Positions 7,035-37,995 of a stretch of DNA of 64,000 nucleotides are shown one piece after another (position 1 is the stretch's first letter; each line of letters opens with the position of its first letter). The notes beneath the pieces are model-generated. The model ran no database searches. It was not told the origin of the DNA and worked only from the letters and a program-made list of their open reading frames with translations. Location: IMG/VR virus record IMGVR_UViG_3300028797_000004, one strand, 5' to 3'. The DNA is from a virus (lineage: Duplodnaviria > Caudoviricetes). The translations under genes and the position numbers were made by a program.

Positions 7035-8645
7035 ATGGCTGAACTCAATGCTGAGCAGAAAGCTGCTGTAGAGTGCACAGATAGAAAAATAGTTTGTATT
7101 GCAGGCGCAGGCGCAGGCAAGACCAAAACATTAGTTTCTAGATTGATACATCAAGTAGTTGGTGGCGCTGATGCAACTCATATGTTAGTGCTCACATTTA
7201 CAAATGCTGCTGCACAAGAAATGAAAGCTCGATACATCGCTGCTGCACCTGAATTTGATGTACCAACCTTCGGAACATTCCATTCATTCTGTTATTCACT
7301 ACTTGTAAATCCTGACATACGCAACGCTCTTGGCTATACAGATGTGCCTACAGTAGCTACACCTGAAGACATTAAATTCTGTAACTCACAAGCTAAGCTG
7401 ATAACAAGACCTAAGCTTCTTGAATCTGAAATGTCTGGTGACGGAGAGAATCTACCTTCATCTAAGAAGCGAGATTACGAGACGTTCAAGCGTTGTAGAG
7501 ATAAGCTTCTGCGACAGAGAGGTCTTATCACATTTGATATGATGTGCTACGACATAGGTCAGCTGTTTATCAATGATGAAGCTTGTGTGCAGCCGATAAA
7601 GCGTAGATATGAGTATGTGGTGTGCGACGAGATGCAAGATTCAGACAAACGGCAGATGTCGTTTCTTAAGTCTTTTAAAGATGCAAACTTATTTGTGGTA
7701 GGTGATGCCAAACAGAATCTATATAGCTTCCGAGGTACAACTAACAGGATAATCAAATCGCTTGCTGAATCTGATGAGTGGACAACAATCAAGATGTATA
7801 AGAACTACAGATGCACAGAAGAAATATGCGAGTTTGCTAACAAGATTCATAAAAGTTGGGGAGATTCTCCTTACAACTTAGCAATACATAGTGATAAGCA
7901 TGATCCGGATTCTGTACATTTTATGCCCGCTTCCGAAGCTTATGAAGTAACCCCTTTGTATTTGTTAGAGATTACACAGAATTCTGATAAGGAGTCAATT
8001 GCATTCTTAGTTCGTACTAATGCAGAAGTAGCTTCGCTTGTAGATAAATGCAAGGCAGTTGGCGTGAAGTATCACACTAATAGTTCCGCTGACTGGCGAG
8101 CTTCCATGCTGCTGGCGTTACAAGATGAGCAGTATGCTATTACCTGGCTGCCGTCAGTACTTAATGCTACTAAGTATAACAATTATCTGCGGGCGTGCAT
8201 ACTTAATCCGGAATATAAAACTATCATAGGCTTACAGCATTTCACAAGTGAGGACGAAGTGTTTGCTGAGAGATACGGGACATATCTTACGCTTAAAACA
8301 CTACTTGACACAAATATATCTGTATTTCAGAAGTATAAGTCAATCACAGAGAAGCTTGACCTCCCATTTGACGTAGCTGACACACCCGATACTGTTGAAG
8401 GTATATTTGATCTCCTCAATACTAAACTTGGTAGCGCAACTACTGATGAAGGTGTTTACATCGGTACAATACATTCGTCAAAAGGACTTGAATACGATAC
8501 TGTGCACTTGTTCGGCGTAGGCGGATCCAGCTTCCAGATCTCCGACGAGGACTCAAAGAATGTCTTCTATGTAGGATGCACAAGAGCTAAGAATAATCTT
8601 TATATCTATTCGGATAAATATAGAAAGGATGATGAAGAATGCTAG
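7035..8645 (+). CDS. UvrD/PcrA-family SF1 DNA helicase
   Basis: AGAGAGKT, LTFTNAAA, TFHS, DEMQD, VGDAKQNLYSFRG, TIHSSKGLEY, YVGCTRAK. Confidence 0.95.
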   Translation: MAELNAEQKAAVECTDRKIVCIAGAGAGKTKTLVSRLIHQVVGGADATHMLVLTFTNAAAQEMKARYIAAAPEFDVPTFGTFHSFCYSLLVNPDIRNALGYTDVPTVATPEDIKFCNSQAKLITRPKLLESEMSGDGENLPSSKKRDYETFKRCRDKLLRQRGLITFDMMCYDIGQLFINDEACVQPIKRRYEYVVCDEMQDSDKRQMSFLKSFKDANLFVVGDAKQNLYSFRGTTNRIIKSLAESDEWTTIKMYKNYRCTEEICEFANKIHKSWGDSPYNLAIHSDKHDPDSVHFMPASEAYEVTPLYLLEITQNSDKESIAFLVRTNAEVASLVDKCKAVGVKYHTNSSADWRASMLLALQDEQYAITWLPSVLNATKYNNYLRACILNPEYKTIIGLQHFTSEDEVFAERYGTYLTLKTLLDTNISVFQKYKSITEKLDLPFDVADTPDTVEGIFDLLNTKLGSATTDEGVYIGTIHSSKGLEYDTVHLFGVGGSSFQISDEDSKNVFYVGCTRAKNNLYIYSDKYRKDDEEC

Positions 8646-9157
8646 TTCCAGCACAGCTGTATAGAGATGAAATCAGCCGTGAGCTAACTGCCCGCTGGTA
8701 CATACCTAGATTCAGTCATTATTTTTCAGGTAATAGGGAGGAGGTTCGGATAGCTGATAATGCTCATTGGCGCAGAGATTTTGCTTATGAGGACATGCAT
8801 CATAGACTTGGCGGATATTTCTCTTATGCATACAATGAATCAGCTAGATCCATGAGTAACTTCGGGCTGGTAGGCTTTCAGAAAAATAACATAGCATTTC
8901 TTCGAGAGGTCAAAGCCCATATACTGCATATGATAGTTACAGGACAGGCTCAGCGAATTGAGTTCTGGGCGTTCACAGATAATCCAGTCATGAAATTGTA
9001 TCGTAGGTGGGCAGAGCAATACGGTGGTGTAGAAATCGCTACATTGCATCGTGTAGCTTTCTACGAAGGGGCATATCATGATATGTCTGTGTTTGAGTTT
9101 CTGCGAGAGGATATACTGTCACATATCACAGTACTACCGGAGGTGTGTTATGAATAG
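8639..9157 (+). CDS. GNAT (RimJ/RimL-like) fold protein
   Basis: RIEFWAFTDNPVMKLYRR...GG...YEGAYHDMSVFE pattern. Confidence 0.6.
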   Translation: MLVPAQLYRDEISRELTARWYIPRFSHYFSGNREEVRIADNAHWRRDFAYEDMHHRLGGYFSYAYNESARSMSNFGLVGFQKNNIAFLREVKAHILHMIVTGQAQRIEFWAFTDNPVMKLYRRWAEQYGGVEIATLHRVAFYEGAYHDMSVFEFLREDILSHITVLPEVCYE

Positions 9158-9530
9158 GTCAGATTTCACTAGAGATATTGAACTTCGTGCAAGGAAGATG
9201 CTGAAGACAAAAGCATTTCTTTCAGAGTTTGCTAAGCATCTGTCAGGGCTGAAAGAGTTCAGCAAGGTGGAGTATGAAGTGACAATTGATGCTGCGGGCT
9301 ATGTGAAAGCAAATGTTGACAGATTAATCAGTGTTTCACACAATAGCCGAAACAAGACAAATCTTATAACTCATATTCTACTTCTGCACTGCTCTTCAGA
9401 AGATTCACAATTAGGGATACATGGTGACGGTAGCAGGTACCGATTAAACTTATCGCAGTATGTGATAGGTACATATAAGTATGAGCTGTCATCAACAGGT
9501 AAGACTCGGCATTGGAGGAAAATATCATGA
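9150..9530 (+). CDS. Hypothetical protein
   Basis: GGAGGTG SD before ATG 9150. Confidence 0.65.
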   Translation: MNRSDFTRDIELRARKMLKTKAFLSEFAKHLSGLKEFSKVEYEVTIDAAGYVKANVDRLISVSHNSRNKTNLITHILLLHCSSEDSQLGIHGDGSRYRLNLSQYVIGTYKYELSSTGKTRHWRKIS

Positions 9531-9895
9531 GAAAGCGATTTTCAAATACAGTGGTGTGCGGACGCTCAGTTCAAGTAGGTAACTTCTATCGAAGCTACAA
9601 TGGTACTTGTGTTGAAGTCATTGCTATCGCAGAGAATGTAGAAACTGGTCAAGAGATGGTCGTCTATCGTACTCGTCACGAACAGAAACGTGAAATTGAC
9701 GATATGATTCTCACTTGTACTGCCGAGGCATTCTTGAGTGATGTGCAAGTTGGTGGTGTAACCAAGACTCGATATCGTGAGGTACTGATAGGCGTAACAC
9801 GTTTTCACGATAAAGAGTGGGTAGAGCTTCTTGAATCGTCACCTATGCGATCACGTCACATGATAAGTTTTGAAACGCAGGAGGGGGCTCAGTAG
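9527..9895 (+). CDS. DUF1653-like protein
   Basis: [16 protein letters not shown]...ETGQEMVVY...F.S.V...RY pattern. Confidence 0.7.
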
Positions 9896-11019
9896 TGTTT
9901 AGATCATTTAGATTTCGATTGCATTTATCTACATTTCAGTCCGCACAAGTTCGACAAACATTCGGCTGTTGCCGATTTGTCTACAATTATTTTCTAGCGG
10001 ATTCTATCAAACAATACAAAGCTGACAAACAAAGCTTCAACTTATTTCAAAGTTTCAAGCAGCTTTCAGCAATGAGGAAGCTGTCAGAGTACAGCTGGTT
10101 ACAACAAGCTGATAGCGAAGCTTTGAGATATGCTTTGAAGCAGCTGAACTCAGCTTACCAAAATTTCTTCAGAAGTTTGGAGTCAGATAAACATATATGC
10201 TTTCCGAAGTTCAAATTTAAACGATTTGCAAAGCAAACATATACAACATCGGCTGTGAACGAAGCTACATTCCGTATTGAAAACAATAAGATTTTCATAC
10301 CTAAATTAGGGTTTGTTAAATTCCGAGGTCGTCAACATATGCAAGGCAAACCGATTCATGCTACAATCTCAAGGTCTGCAACTGGAAAATATTATATTTC
10401 TGTTGTTTGCAAAGATGTTCAAATTGATAAGTTACCTGAAACGCATCAAAGTGTAGGTATAGATTTAGGTCTGAAAGATTTTGCAATCACCTCAGACAGA
10501 GAAAAATTCTCAAATCCAAAATTCTTCGCAAAATACCAAAAACAGCTTGCAAAAGCTCAAAGAAAGCTGTCCCGAAAACCAAAGGGCAGCCATAACTTCG
10601 AGAAGCAAAAGCTGAGAGTTGCAAGAATTCACGAGAAAATTACAAACTGTCGAACAGATTTCTTGCAGAAGCTATCAACAAGTTTGATTCGCAGATATGA
10701 TATCCTCTGCATTGAAGACCTGTCAGTGCAAGGCATGATGCAGAATCATAAGCTTGCAAAATCAATTGCGGATGTTTCTTGGTCACGATTTGTATCAATG
10801 CTGAGCTACAAAGCTGAGTGGTATGGTAGAACTCTCCAGAAAATCAACAAGTTCTATCCAAGTTCACAATTGTGCAGCTGCTGCGGGCATCAGAATCCAG
10901 ATGTCAAAGACTTAGCAGTTCGCAGATGGATCTGCCCACAGTGCAACACAGAACACGACAGAGATACCAACGCAGCGAAAAACATTTTAGCTGAAGGTCT
11001 CAGATTACTTTCAGCTTAA
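9895..11019 (+). CDS. tnpB: RNA-guided endonuclease TnpB (IS200/IS605 OrfB), no recognisable transposon ends
   Basis: N-terminal HTH ([10 protein letters not shown]), RuvC GIDLG / IEDL / DRDTNAA, CSCCG..CPQC zinc finger; GTG start overlaps upstream TAG. Confidence 0.95.
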
Positions 11020-11031
11020 AATCGTTATGAT

Positions 11032-11155
11032 ACGGTGAGCCACACCGGAATTCACGCCTTTGGAGATCTGATAAGACTTGCGCGCAAGCGCAAGCAAGGT
11101 CGTCGAACAAGGAAGAAACAGATTGTTTCGTGGCGTTATAGAATACATACAAATC
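11032..11155 (+). ncRNA. Putative TnpB omegaRNA scaffold plus guide
   Basis: ACGGTGAGCCACACCGGAATTCACGCCTTTGGAGA...TAAGAC...GAACAAGGAA scaffold typical of IS605 right ends; GCCAC(11039-43) can pair with GTGGC(11130-34). Confidence 0.7.
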
Positions 11156-11185
11156 TACTGTTACTGAATGGAAGGAGTAACTACT

Positions 11186-13006
11186 ATGTATAAAATTCAA
11201 AGCATAGAAATTCAGGGTCTGCACAATGTGATGCATGAGAAATACGACCTTGATAATTTCAATTATTTCTACGGCAAGAATGGCGCAGGTAAATCGACTA
11301 TACTTAATGCGATCCAGCTTGCATTGCTTGGCTACATTCCTGGTACAGCTAAGACCAATGTAGCTATCATGAAGCATGCTAACGGCAACTTGCTTGACGT
11401 CAAAGCTACAATTACTGACGATTCTGATGCAACAATCGTAGTAGAACGTATGTGGGTGCAGAAGGGTGCGTCTGTTTCGTCCACTACTACAGTTACACCT
11501 GAAGTGGATCTGTCAACTATCTTAGGTGATCTGTCGGTTCCTGTTTTTGATTTCAATGAGTTTCTTAACCAGTCAGCTAATTCACTGAAAGCTTGGTTCA
11601 TTGATATACTTCCACCTGTTGAGTCTGAAGTAGATCTTGCTAGCGAGCTTGAGAAGTCTGGTGCTGATTATCGTGTAACTGCAGCTGCGTATTACCTTGC
11701 TGGTGTAGCGGATCGTATCTGCTCAAACAGCGGTGATCTTATATCTAAACTTCAGGCAGGCGTAGATATTGTCAAAGATGAAATTTCAGCTATGAAGGGG
11801 CAGATTGAAGCAAATCAGAAAACAATCAATACACTTATCTTCTATGATGAGACCTTACCTGGTAGCATAGATGCAGCAAAATCAGCTTATGAAGCAGCTA
11901 TCCTGAAGTCGAATGCGGCAAGAGATAGATTCACAGAAGTGAAATCAAAGCAAAATCTCCTTATACAGCTGGATTCGCTTAATGCTTCACTTGCAGAATC
12001 TATGGATGCTGATGAAGCTCTGAAGTCTGCTAGAACACGACGTATTGCAACAGCTGCAGCACTTCATGAGAACGAAAAGCTTCAGAATGAGCTTCGTACA
12101 GAAATTGATACGCTCAAGAATGATCTCACAACCCTTCAGCCGATTATCAATAGTCATGGTCAATGTCCGTTTACAAAGTCTGTATGTTTAACTATTGATG
12201 AGAAACGCGAATCGGCTCAGAAAGATTTTGATGAGAAGTATGCAAGAAAAGCAATGCTTGACTCTAAGTACAACGCAACTACAATGACTATCAATACAAA
12301 TCGAGCTGAGCTGCAAACGCTTGACAAAACTATTGCCAACATTGAAGCTCAGTACACCAAGCGAGATGAGCTTCGTCAGTTAGTAGGCAGTGCAGAGGTA
12401 GTGGATCTTTCTGTTTTGGAAGCAGATATTCAGGAAGCTTCACAAGAGATGCTTACAGCAAGGGAAGCTCTGTCTAAGGTAGAAGCTAATCACAAGTTCA
12501 CAGAACTTAGTGAGAAACTCACAATGGAGAAGGTTGTCTGCGAAGCAAATCTCAATGTGCTGAAAGCTTGGGAGAAGATCCTTGGGCCTAACGGTTTACA
12601 GACCACTGCTGCTAAAGCAACATTCAATCAGCTTGCATCAAAGATATCTGCATATCTTACAAAGCTGCTTGGCGAACCTTGTGAAGCTGGTTTTACACTT
12701 ACAGCTAAAGCAAACTCGTTTGACTTCGGCATCAAACGCGGAGATACATATGTGAACTTCACAACATTGTCTAGCGGAGAGCAGTGCATTTACACACTTG
12801 CGATGTTGCTTGCACTTACAGAGACTGCCGATACACAGATGCCCTTTATCATGATTGATGACCTTCTGGATCATCTTGACGTAGCAAAGGCGAGCGCCGT
12901 GTTCTCAACCTTGTATGATATAGCTGGTATACAAATATTACTTGCAGGTGTGCAGCCATGCGATCATCCTGCTGCTAACCAGTTTGTAAAAGTAATTGGA
13001 GGATAA
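11186..13006 (+). CDS. SbcC/Rad50-like SMC-family ATPase
   Basis: GKNGAGKS Walker A, long coiled coil with central CPF...C, LSSGEQ signature, IMIDD Walker B. Confidence 0.85.
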   Translation: MYKIQSIEIQGLHNVMHEKYDLDNFNYFYGKNGAGKSTILNAIQLALLGYIPGTAKTNVAIMKHANGNLLDVKATITDDSDATIVVERMWVQKGASVSSTTTVTPEVDLSTILGDLSVPVFDFNEFLNQSANSLKAWFIDILPPVESEVDLASELEKSGADYRVTAAAYYLAGVADRICSNSGDLISKLQAGVDIVKDEISAMKGQIEANQKTINTLIFYDETLPGSIDAAKSAYEAAILKSNAARDRFTEVKSKQNLLIQLDSLNASLAESMDADEALKSARTRRIATAAALHENEKLQNELRTEIDTLKNDLTTLQPIINSHGQCPFTKSVCLTIDEKRESAQKDFDEKYARKAMLDSKYNATTMTINTNRAELQTLDKTIANIEAQYTKRDELRQLVGSAEVVDLSVLEADIQEASQEMLTAREALSKVEANHKFTELSEKLTMEKVVCEANLNVLKAWEKILGPNGLQTTAAKATFNQLASKISAYLTKLLGEPCEAGFTLTAKANSFDFGIKRGDTYVNFTTLSSGEQCIYTLAMLLALTETADTQMPFIMIDDLLDHLDVAKASAVFSTLYDIAGIQILLAGVQPCDHPAANQFVKVIGG

Positions 13007-36099: not shown

Positions 36100-36434
36100 T
36101 GAACGCAAGTATAGACCCAATGTGGCTCGAGCAACTCAAACAAGTAACAATCAAAGGCGAGAAGTTTCGCTCGCACATGATAAACCTTGATGCAGGACAA
36201 TTTGATAATCTGATATATGGAGGTACAAACAGTATACGTGTACCTAAGCAGGATTTCAAACTCGGAGATTCAGTGGTGCTAGTACGCACTAAGAATAACA
36301 GAACTACACCTCAGAGGTGCGTAGCACTCATAGAACAGATTACAGATGATGATTGCTTCAAACGATTACAACTTGAAATAGTATCTGTTTATACAGAGCT
36401 TGGGCAGAATACCTTCCCCCTCCCCCACTTCTAA
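36099..36434 (+). CDS. ASCH/DUF3850-like protein; C-terminus replaced by IS insertion
   Basis: F..LI.G....IR....DFKLGD.V.L; original end ...VYTELATYVS* reconstructed from the right flank. Confidence 0.55.
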   Translation: MNASIDPMWLEQLKQVTIKGEKFRSHMINLDAGQFDNLIYGGTNSIRVPKQDFKLGDSVVLVRTKNNRTTPQRCVALIEQITDDDCFKRLQLEIVSVYTELGQNTFPLPHF

Positions 36435-36485
36435 GCGAAGCGAAAGTGGGGGATGAATGCCGATTGTTTTTTTTACTGAAACTAT

Positions 36486-36514
36486 TGACAATCAGTAAAA
36501 TATATGCTATAATA
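36486..36514 (+). promoter_or_regulatory. Consensus sigma-A promoter of the IS, -35 flanked by TTACTGA/TCAGTAA inverted repeat
   Basis: TTGACA-17 bp-TATAAT with extended TG. Confidence 0.8.
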
Positions 36515-36558
36515 GATACATAGGGAATGTCCTAAATCTAAAAGGAAGGGGAAAAACC

Positions 36559-37809
36559 ATGTATCTAACAGTAAAGCAAAAAGTAAAGCATCTGTCAAAG
36601 GGAGAATACAGCATTTTGAGAGAATTGTGTCATACAGCAAAAAATCTTGCCAATGAAGCAATCTATAATGTCCGTCAGTATTACTTCACAGAGGGAGAAT
36701 ATCTGAAATACGAAAAGAATTACGCATTGCTGAAAGACAGTCCTAATTACAAAATACTCAACTCCAATATGGCACAGCAGATTTTGAAAGAAGTAGACGG
36801 TTCATTCAAAAGCTTTTTCGGACTTCTGAAACCTGCAAAGAAAGGCAAGTATTCTTTCAGAGACTGCAAATTACCGCATTATCTCCCAAAAGACGGATTT
36901 GTTACGCTTGTGATAGGATTTGTCAGGCTGAATGGAAATAAGCTGATTCTTCCATATTCCAATACATTCAAGAAAACGCACAAGCCTGTTGAAATCAAAA
37001 TACCGCCGATACTTGCTGACAAGCATATCAAAGAAATCAGAATCATTCCGAAATCAGGAGCAAGGTTCTTTGAAATTCAGTATACTTATGAAGCTGAATG
37101 TATTCAAAGAAATCTTAACAAAAACAATGCACTTGCTCTGGATTTAGGTGTGAATAATCTTGTGACTGCTGTATCAAGTGAGGGCAGAAGCTTCATCATT
37201 GACGGCAGAAAGCTGAAATCTGTCAATCAATGGTTTAACAAAGAAAATGCACGGCTGCAAGGTATCAAAGACAGGCAGGGTGATAAAAGAAGAACAACAA
37301 ACCGTCAGAAAATCTTAGCTGACAAAAGAAACAGACAAGTCAATGACTATATGAGTAAAACTGCAAGAAAAATCATCGATTACTGTATTGCTCATGATAT
37401 TGGAACGCTTGTAGTCGGATATAATGAAACATTTCAGCGAAATTCTGGCATGAACAAGCGTAACAATCAGAATTTTGTCAATATTCCGTATGGTAAACTG
37501 CGTTCCAAACTGGAATATCTTTGTGAACTGAACGGAATTGTTTTTGTCAAGCAGGAAGAAAGCTATACTTCACAAGCATCTTTCTGGGACAGGGATAATA
37601 TTCCTGTCTATAATGCAGACAATCCGCAGTCCTATAAATTCAGCGGAACACGCATACGAAGAGGATTGTACAAAACTGCTGACGGAATATTGCTTAACGC
37701 GGATGTCAATGGTGCATTGAATATTTTAAGAAAAAGTAGCGTTGTGGACTTAACAGTCCTATACGGTAGTGGCGAAGTGGATACGCCTGTAAGAATAAGG
37801 GTTGCCTGA
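36559..37809 (+). CDS. tnpB: RNA-guided endonuclease TnpB
   Basis: ALDLGVNN, QEESYTS, RRGLY, NADVNGALNI. Confidence 0.95.
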   Translation: MYLTVKQKVKHLSKGEYSILRELCHTAKNLANEAIYNVRQYYFTEGEYLKYEKNYALLKDSPNYKILNSNMAQQILKEVDGSFKSFFGLLKPAKKGKYSFRDCKLPHYLPKDGFVTLVIGFVRLNGNKLILPYSNTFKKTHKPVEIKIPPILADKHIKEIRIIPKSGARFFEIQYTYEAECIQRNLNKNNALALDLGVNNLVTAVSSEGRSFIIDGRKLKSVNQWFNKENARLQGIKDRQGDKRRTTNRQKILADKRNRQVNDYMSKTARKIIDYCIAHDIGTLVVGYNETFQRNSGMNKRNNQNFVNIPYGKLRSKLEYLCELNGIVFVKQEESYTSQASFWDRDNIPVYNADNPQSYKFSGTRIRRGLYKTADGILLNADVNGALNILRKSSVVDLTVLYGSGEVDTPVRIRVA

Positions 37810-37995
37810 TTTCAGGTGGAAACTTAAATACCAATCTTCTTACGAAGCCCCTGCCTCTTTAGGCGGGGGAGAGTTCACACAGAGCTTGCAACTTATGTGA
37901 GCTAATGCGAGATTAAACGAGATGAAATATTTCAATGTGTATCGGTATCGTTATATACTACGAGTATAATATTTCAAATAAAGGAGGTTTCTAAT

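Follow-up and report, generated by a model that had tools for sequence, protein, structure and literature searches.

T-even phages carry free-standing homing endonuclease genes of the Seg and Mob types, which spread by intronless homing, and tnpB genes borne by phages in most cases receive the annotation “transposase” and no explanation. The latter are described as functionally unassigned (10.64898/2026.02.14.705889). TldR is a phage-encoded, nuclease-dead, domesticated TnpB that is guided to a host promoter (PMC10705468). Homing of transposons in the “non-restorative” sense, including the TnpB-driven spread of IS605 elements among plasmids, has been reviewed, with TnpB homing between co-infecting phages treated as a theoretical case (PMC13565253).

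Here we analysed a stretch of 64,000 nt (the window), which corresponds to positions 41793-105792 of a 148,711-bp IMG/VR phage genome with direct terminal repeats, and in which the plus strand holds all long open reading frames. Between a DUF1653 gene and an SMC/SbcC-like ATPase gene there is a discrete insertion of ~1.28 kb, running from ~9859 to 11133-11137. We consider it likely that this cassette (~9859-11136) is a tnpA-less, phage-adapted derivative of an ISDra2-like IS200/IS605 element that spreads by RNA-guided homing, the cleavage and homing steps being predicted from sequence. What leads us to this reading is an insertion polymorphism, a guide that is the flank of the insertion, three occupied sites, purifying selection, a conserved RNA structure and the absence of tnpA. 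The locus is made up as follows.

9527-9895, plus strand: upstream DUF1653 gene; native codons 1-111 stop at 9859, codons 112-122 and the TAG are element-derived
9859-9894, plus strand: left end of the element, ~36 nt, with the Shine-Dalgarno (SD) sequence GGAGGGGG at 9880-9887 and no hairpin matching the right end
9895-11019, plus strand: tnpB, 374 aa, predicted ISDra2-like RNA-guided nuclease with D190/E274/D357 and the zinc finger intact
11021-11028, plus strand: ATCGTTAT, a copy of a phage-wide motif, 3' of the tnpB stop and ahead of the scaffold
11032-11136, plus strand: omegaRNA scaffold, identified by a covariance-model match and a covarying consensus structure
11033-11047, plus strand: scaffold stem 1, loop AGCCA
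11057-11061 with ~11108-11112, plus strand: long-range stem of the consensus structure
11115-11129, plus strand: terminal hairpin of the scaffold, 6 bp in the window
11130-11136, plus strand: scaffold tail GTGGCGT, in which TGGC (11131-11134) pairs with the loop GCCA (11039-11042)
11137-11156, plus strand: guide region, the native right flank of the insertion, matching the L010 empty allele at 20/20 positions
11186-13006, plus strand: downstream SMC/SbcC-like ATPase gene, SD at 11170-11177

The start of the ATPase gene at 11186 agrees with that of its 606-aa relatives. Among GenBank phages, megablast and tblastn found no close relatives of the locus (TnpB at most 49%, ATPase no match), and scans of IMG/VR with TnpB and with the ATPase gave no matches.

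The tnpB product is intact, RuvC D/E/D included, as the earlier note had claimed. It contains the Pfam domains HTH_OrfB_IS605, OrfB_IS605 and Cas12f1-like_TNB and matches the ISDra2 TnpB structures (8bf8/8exa) over its full length with E=3e-99, and D190, E274 and D357 are invariant in an alignment of 30 sequences, as are C327, C330, C347 and C350 of the CxxC...CxxC zinc finger. These domains and catalytic residues, and a scaffold 3' of the gene, place it in the ISDra2-like clade, and we infer that it is an RNA-guided nuclease of that type, for which TAM-dependent cleavage is predicted. K76, F77 and Q80, which we take from the published structures to be the TAM-contacting residues of ISDra2 TnpB, are not conserved in the window's protein. 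The tight coupling to the upstream gene that had been described is also there: the GTG start codon (9895-9897) shares its G with the TAG at 9893-9895, behind GGAGGGGG at 9880-9887.

The limits of the element follow from at least 12 sister-phage contigs (L010-L014, L017-L023) in which the DUF1653 stop codon, 54 nt and the ATPase ATG succeed one another, that is, in which the site is empty. Aligned with these alleles, the window loses homology at 9858 and regains it at 11134. The element had been thought to have no left end; the comparison corrects this, in that ~36 nt of inserted DNA (9859/9860-9894) precede the GTG and supply both the tnpB SD and the final 11 codons and stop of the DUF1653 gene. 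The same polymorphism is visible in the 90% cluster of the DUF1653 protein, which consists of 111-aa members of the empty type, ending in SRH, and 122-aa members of the occupied type (P0125, P0128), the latter being the 111-aa protein plus the very 11-residue tail seen in the window; ~24 contigs encode the shorter protein and ~3 the longer one. Because the occupied allele lacks six nucleotides, TTGATT, that the empty alleles possess, the empty alleles are ancestral and not products of excision. TTGAT is the TAM of ISDra2, and a clean insertion 3' of the TTGAT present in the empty allele was considered and rejected, since the occupied left junction differs and the six nucleotides are missing.

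Two further sites are occupied in sister phages. One copy (P0002, in L004; 78% aa identity) lies between a clamp-loader gene and a gene for a 165-aa protein, a site that is empty in the window's phage, where the two genes directly adjoin each other and the 165-aa product is 100% identical. The other (P0133, in L015 and L016; 89% aa identity) lies ahead of a gene for a 346-aa protein, and this site is empty at ~2062 of the window. L018 and L004 share a sample of origin, and in L018 the window's site is empty. The three copies have the orientation of the phage genes, and each begins between a few and ~40 nt from the upstream stop codon. They represent old lineages rather than fresh hops from one another, since the tnpB copies differ by dS 0.4-0.6 and the phage backbones by only 0.12-0.24. 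The L004 tnpB (7884-9124, compared with 9895-11136 of the window) is moreover a mosaic, with a middle part of ~850 nt that is ~95% identical to the window and a first ~380 nt and last 22 nt of the element that are unrelated or highly diverged; in the protein, the first ~125 residues are ~40% identical and the remainder ~94%. In this mosaic, the protein region with the TAM-reading role in ISDra2 changes together with the outermost stretch of the right end.

At the window's own site, the left junction and left end of contig L024 are identical to those of the window, whereas over the adjacent 773 nt L024 shows only 89.8% identity with the window, as against 96.0% with the empty L010 and 94.4% with the empty L017-L021. 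In addition, two DUF1653 haplotypes are each found both filled and empty. The shared junction in divergent backbones and the two haplotypes indicate that one insertion event has been moved into diverged genomes by recombination. Homing predicts an insertion present in several backbones; general recombination alone could also bring this about.

A scaffold beginning at about 11032 had been proposed, and it was recovered by a covariance model built from 20 bacterial relatives with phage sequences excluded. The sole match of this model in the window is 11032-11131 (36.7 bits, E=3e-6), and it finds the scaffolds of L015 and L004 at equivalent places. The RNAalifold consensus of the 20 relatives has 19 pairs, and compensatory changes are seen at 11 of these. 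Bacterial relatives (n=80; 42-52% aa identity, mostly Clostridia and Bacilli) have, after the tnpB stop, an AT-rich spacer, stem 1, a long-range stem, a variable stem and a GC-rich hairpin, with eight nucleotides after the latter that end in GTTCAC, GTTCAA or GTCAA at the boundary. In agreement with the remodelled right end described earlier, the GC-rich hairpin and the terminal GTTCAC/GTCAA are replaced in the window by the short hairpin at 11115-11129 and GTGGCGT; the substitute hairpin has 6 bp in the window and 5 bp in L015, where both arms are changed, and L004 has no right-end hairpin (0 kcal/mol). As a transcription terminator the 11115-11129 hairpin was rejected, since it has no T-run and covaries with L015 and is thus part of the element. 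The suspected pseudoknot, GCCA(C) with (G)TGGC, is real in the sense that covariation supports it: loop and tail pair as GAC/GTC or GAAC/GTTC in the bacterial relatives, and as GCCA with TGGC or GCCG with CGGC or TGGC in the phage copies, so that the stem-1 loop and the 3' tail have changed together and the pairing has been kept. No Rfam family matches the scaffold, even at E up to 10, and an exact 25-mer from it is absent from the viral-contig and metagenome-contig collections.

Both the protein and the RNA appear to be maintained. Pairwise comparison of the window tnpB with its sister copies (Nei-Gojobori) gives dN/dS 0.06-0.10 at dS 0.4-0.6, from which we conclude that tnpB is under strong purifying selection; the neutral evolution that the earlier note had named as evidence against its own proposal is thus not seen. 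The 95-nt scaffold core differs between copies at 2-8 positions (8/95 in the case of L015), compared with 37% at synonymous sites. These values bear on the possibility that the cassette is a non-functional remnant of an old insertion, stranded in the phage genome and carried along with it. Its degenerate ends, the lack of a transposase and its rarity in the population would fit such a relic. However, selection of this strength over a dS of ~0.5, a scaffold much better conserved than synonymous sites, compensatory changes that preserve the hairpin and the pseudoknot, and the identical insertion in diverged backbones would not, and we consider this explanation extremely unlikely.

By what means, then, could such a cassette move? 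No Y1 transposase (PF01797) was found in the whole 148.7-kb genome in a search whose positive controls worked, and tblastn with the TnpA of a relative gave no match; in 31 of the 80 bacterial relatives, a Y1 transposase gene or its remnant lies just upstream of tnpB. The window copy does not display the marks of an autonomous IS200/IS605 element: no Y1 TnpA, no paired subterminal hairpins and no TCAA/TCAC-type right end. Since the transposase, the hairpins and the TCAA/TCAC end are all missing, TnpA-type mobilisation of the window copy is unlikely. The immobility that the earlier note had assumed is not supported: the missing tnpA, the lost left hairpin and the absence of a canonical TnpA cleavage motif would fit it, but the sister copies at two other loci speak against it. 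The contrast that had been drawn with an ordinary IS at 36393 holds, in that the element at 36416-37880 has canonical GC hairpins and a TTCAC end.

This second element of the window is also tnpB-only, with a 416-aa ORF (36559-37809), GC-rich left and right hairpins, a sigma-70-like TTGACA/TATAAT promoter and the canonical end GAGTTCAC; in its protein the RuvC glutamate is not aligned (V there) and the zinc finger is missing. A copy of ATCGTTAT follows it at 37947. A third TnpB of this phage, 40% identical, lies outside the window (G000:139887-140963; L002 1495-2580), with one weak match to the omegaRNA model that ends in the canonical GTCAC and a second weak match just upstream of the gene.

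Ordinary IS605-type peel-and-paste by a host TnpA acting in trans, with TnpB serving only for restorative retention, would offer a way around the missing transposase. The L015 copy gives it some substance: it has a pair of 5-bp hairpins that match each other, the left one 19 nt and the right one 7-8 nt from the respective tip, a geometry that we take to resemble that of IS608. That three different sites are occupied and that the close bacterial relatives are tnpA-tnpB elements would fit as well. On the other hand, the window copy has no left-end hairpin matching that of the right end, L004 has no right hairpin, and the TCAA/TCAC end is missing in all three phage copies. The left flanks do not share a target motif either, one having been sought across the three occupied sites and none found; at two of them the left junction shows a 4-nt overlap with the left-end tip (GTCA, GTGTG-type), and at the third (L015 936-960, 2224-2245) the insertion is flanked by a 7-nt direct target duplication, or 11 nt with one mismatch. 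Target duplications are not a usual product of IS200/IS605 transposition. As, in addition, the empty alleles cannot be excision products, peel-and-paste by a host enzyme is in our view unlikely.

The motif ahead of the scaffold, ATCGTTAT at 11021-11028, lies between the stop at 11019 and the scaffold just as had been described. The window contains 12 copies, all on the plus strand, against 2.1 expected, and the whole genome 18 on the plus strand and one on the minus strand; 13 of the 18 are intergenic. Its usual form, TGA-ATCGTTAT-WA at 20-80 nt ahead of a start codon, probably acts as the promoter of a single temporal class of genes. Sites of this form in the window include 1295, 2050, 5903, 6954, 16307, 28958, 35777, 37947 and 38445, and in the genome they are concentrated at 43-80 kb. 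The element's own copy is conserved in all three phage copies (window, L015, L004) despite a dS of ~0.5 and is absent from the 80 bacterial relatives and from L005, which supports an acquisition that is specific to the phage copies and is under constraint. Within the empty site there is a copy of the motif with one mismatch, which the element has split, and such a motif is likewise present at the third site (L015). Putative promoter activity of the element's copy could serve the omegaRNA, the downstream gene with the split signal, or both.

As to the guide, a start at about 11135-11139 had been proposed, and this is about right: by homology the scaffold tail consists of the pseudoknot tetramer plus 2 nt and ends at 11136, which puts the first guide nucleotide at 11137, with an uncertainty of 11134-11138 that is due to the four bases CGTT common to the empty allele. 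The 20-nt guide overlaps the remnant of the promoter-like motif native to the ATPase gene. In the empty allele of L010 all of its positions are identical (20/20) and TTCGT precedes them; in the occupied allele, GGCGT stands in this place. The match to L011-L014 is 16/20 (mismatches at positions 9, 10, 12 and 14), and L017-L023 have three mismatches in the first 12 positions and ACCGT upstream. No other match to the guide with at most two mismatches after TCGT exists in the phage's own genome, and the 20-mer is absent from the viral-contig and metagenome-contig collections. Among the targets that the earlier note had suggested, the tnpB-less allele is a valid one. Among the empty alleles, variation within the 54-nt intergenic region is greatest in the 20-nt target, and the variants in it (L010 6336-6360, L011 3336-3360, L017 3336-3360) may be escape variants.

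These observations also bear on the proposal made in the earlier note, namely that this is a domesticated, immobile TnpB retained for the phage's benefit, with a fixed guide directed at the host or an unrelated competitor. One can perceive why it was made: the phage has no tnpA, the left-end hairpin has been lost and the right end is non-canonical, tnpB is tied to the operon upstream of it, the scaffold has a phage motif ahead of it, and purifying selection is strong. However, most sister alleles are without the gene, and the guide is not fixed but local flank, different at each of the three sites, with each sister copy at another locus having its own flank in this position. A domesticated TnpB should sit at a fixed locus with a guide to some other locus; here the site is empty in 12 sister loci, the guide is the flank of the insertion, and the empty allele is the sole guide match found among the sister alleles, the phage's own genome and the viral-contig and metagenome-contig collections, which is the very outcome that the note had said would speak against it. 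We therefore regard domestication as very unlikely. A presence/absence polymorphism at a precise site, with the empty allele as the predicted target of the nuclease, is what a homing element displays, and the cassette is probably a selfish homing element that passes between co-infecting phages rather than a domesticated phage gene.

Homing of the cassette could perceivably proceed as follows. Translation of tnpB would depend on read-through from the upstream operon together with the SD in the short left end, and the omegaRNA (11032-11136 plus the guide from ~11137) would derive from the same transcript or from the element's ATCGTTAT motif. Upon co-infection with a sister phage whose site is empty, the TnpB-omegaRNA complex would cut the sequence that follows TTCGT in the empty allele, and recombinational repair off the occupied genome would copy the cassette in, as in the “non-restorative” homing of transposons. 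Self-cleavage would be avoided because GGCGT, and not TTCGT, precedes the guide sequence in the occupied allele. Interference against the rival phage that is cut would be a side effect.

Such homing would account for spread at the same site but not for the colonisation of new ones. The register of the TAM (TTCGT, TCGTT or ATTCG) is not fixed, since it was deduced from two sites only, both of which share one promoter-like motif. With some hesitation, we suggest a further and rather doubtful possibility, in which the TAM lies inside the promoter-like core (A-TCGT-TAT), so that every such promoter would be a potential landing or cutting site for a TnpA-free, phage-resident lineage tuned to phage transcription signals. 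GGCGT plus the flank would then partly rebuild the split motif, the element's own copy would drive the omegaRNA and the downstream gene, and new sites would be reached by off-target cleavage at promoters followed by microhomology-based repair.

The population also contains other differences between sister phages. Comparison of L004 (167-2758, 6422-7879) with G000:20374-21378 reveals an intein with an HNH domain in the family-A DNA polymerase of L004, and the L004 clamp-loader gene contains an insert of ~147 residues, intein-like by its position, that is missing in the window's phage. In L010 (2137-5119) and L011 (64-2138) a UvrD-like helicase gene is split by an opposite-strand 325-aa ORF with weak LAGLIDADG matches; the window's UvrD-like helicase gene (7035-8645) is intact. 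As the sister phages differ by inteins and a LAGLIDADG-type ORF, homing-type elements circulate in this population.

Taken together, we argue that the locus does not show TnpB domestication but provides a small natural set for testing: one cassette occupies three sites in phages that are nearly identical, each site has filled and empty alleles, one empty allele matches the guide perfectly and others look resistant, and compensatory change has remodelled the right end and the pseudoknot. It also reveals what an IS605 end can dispense with in the absence of TnpA.

With respect to known systems, the window element resembles ISDra2 (PDB 8bf8/8exa/8h1j) in its domains, its D/E/D residues and zinc finger, in a scaffold directly 3' of tnpB and in a guide that is the flank, and it shares with the bacterial relatives the layout of stem, long-range stem, hairpin and pseudoknot. 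Unlike ISDra2, it has no tnpA and only a left end of ~36 nt without a hairpin; its right end reads GTGGCGT instead of GTTCAC/GTCAA, with the stem-1 loop changed to match; a phage motif has been inserted ahead of the scaffold; and its probable TAM is not TTGAT in the expected register. As a TnpB relative borne by a phage and lacking a transposase it is like TldR, but it has retained D/E/D and has its own flank as guide. The likeness to the T-even Seg and Mob genes lies in an intergenic, same-strand, operon-coupled selfish nuclease gene with a patchy distribution in sister phages and variable targets; the predicted recognition, however, is by an RNA guide and a TAM, and self-sparing would come about because the insertion parts the TAM from the target and not, as with Seg and Mob, through substitutions in a nearby gene. 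As in non-restorative homing (PMC13565253), the nuclease would tell filled from empty alleles and have the element copied without TnpA, and what is a theoretical case in that review has here a candidate natural counterpart in a filled/empty polymorphism within a phage population.
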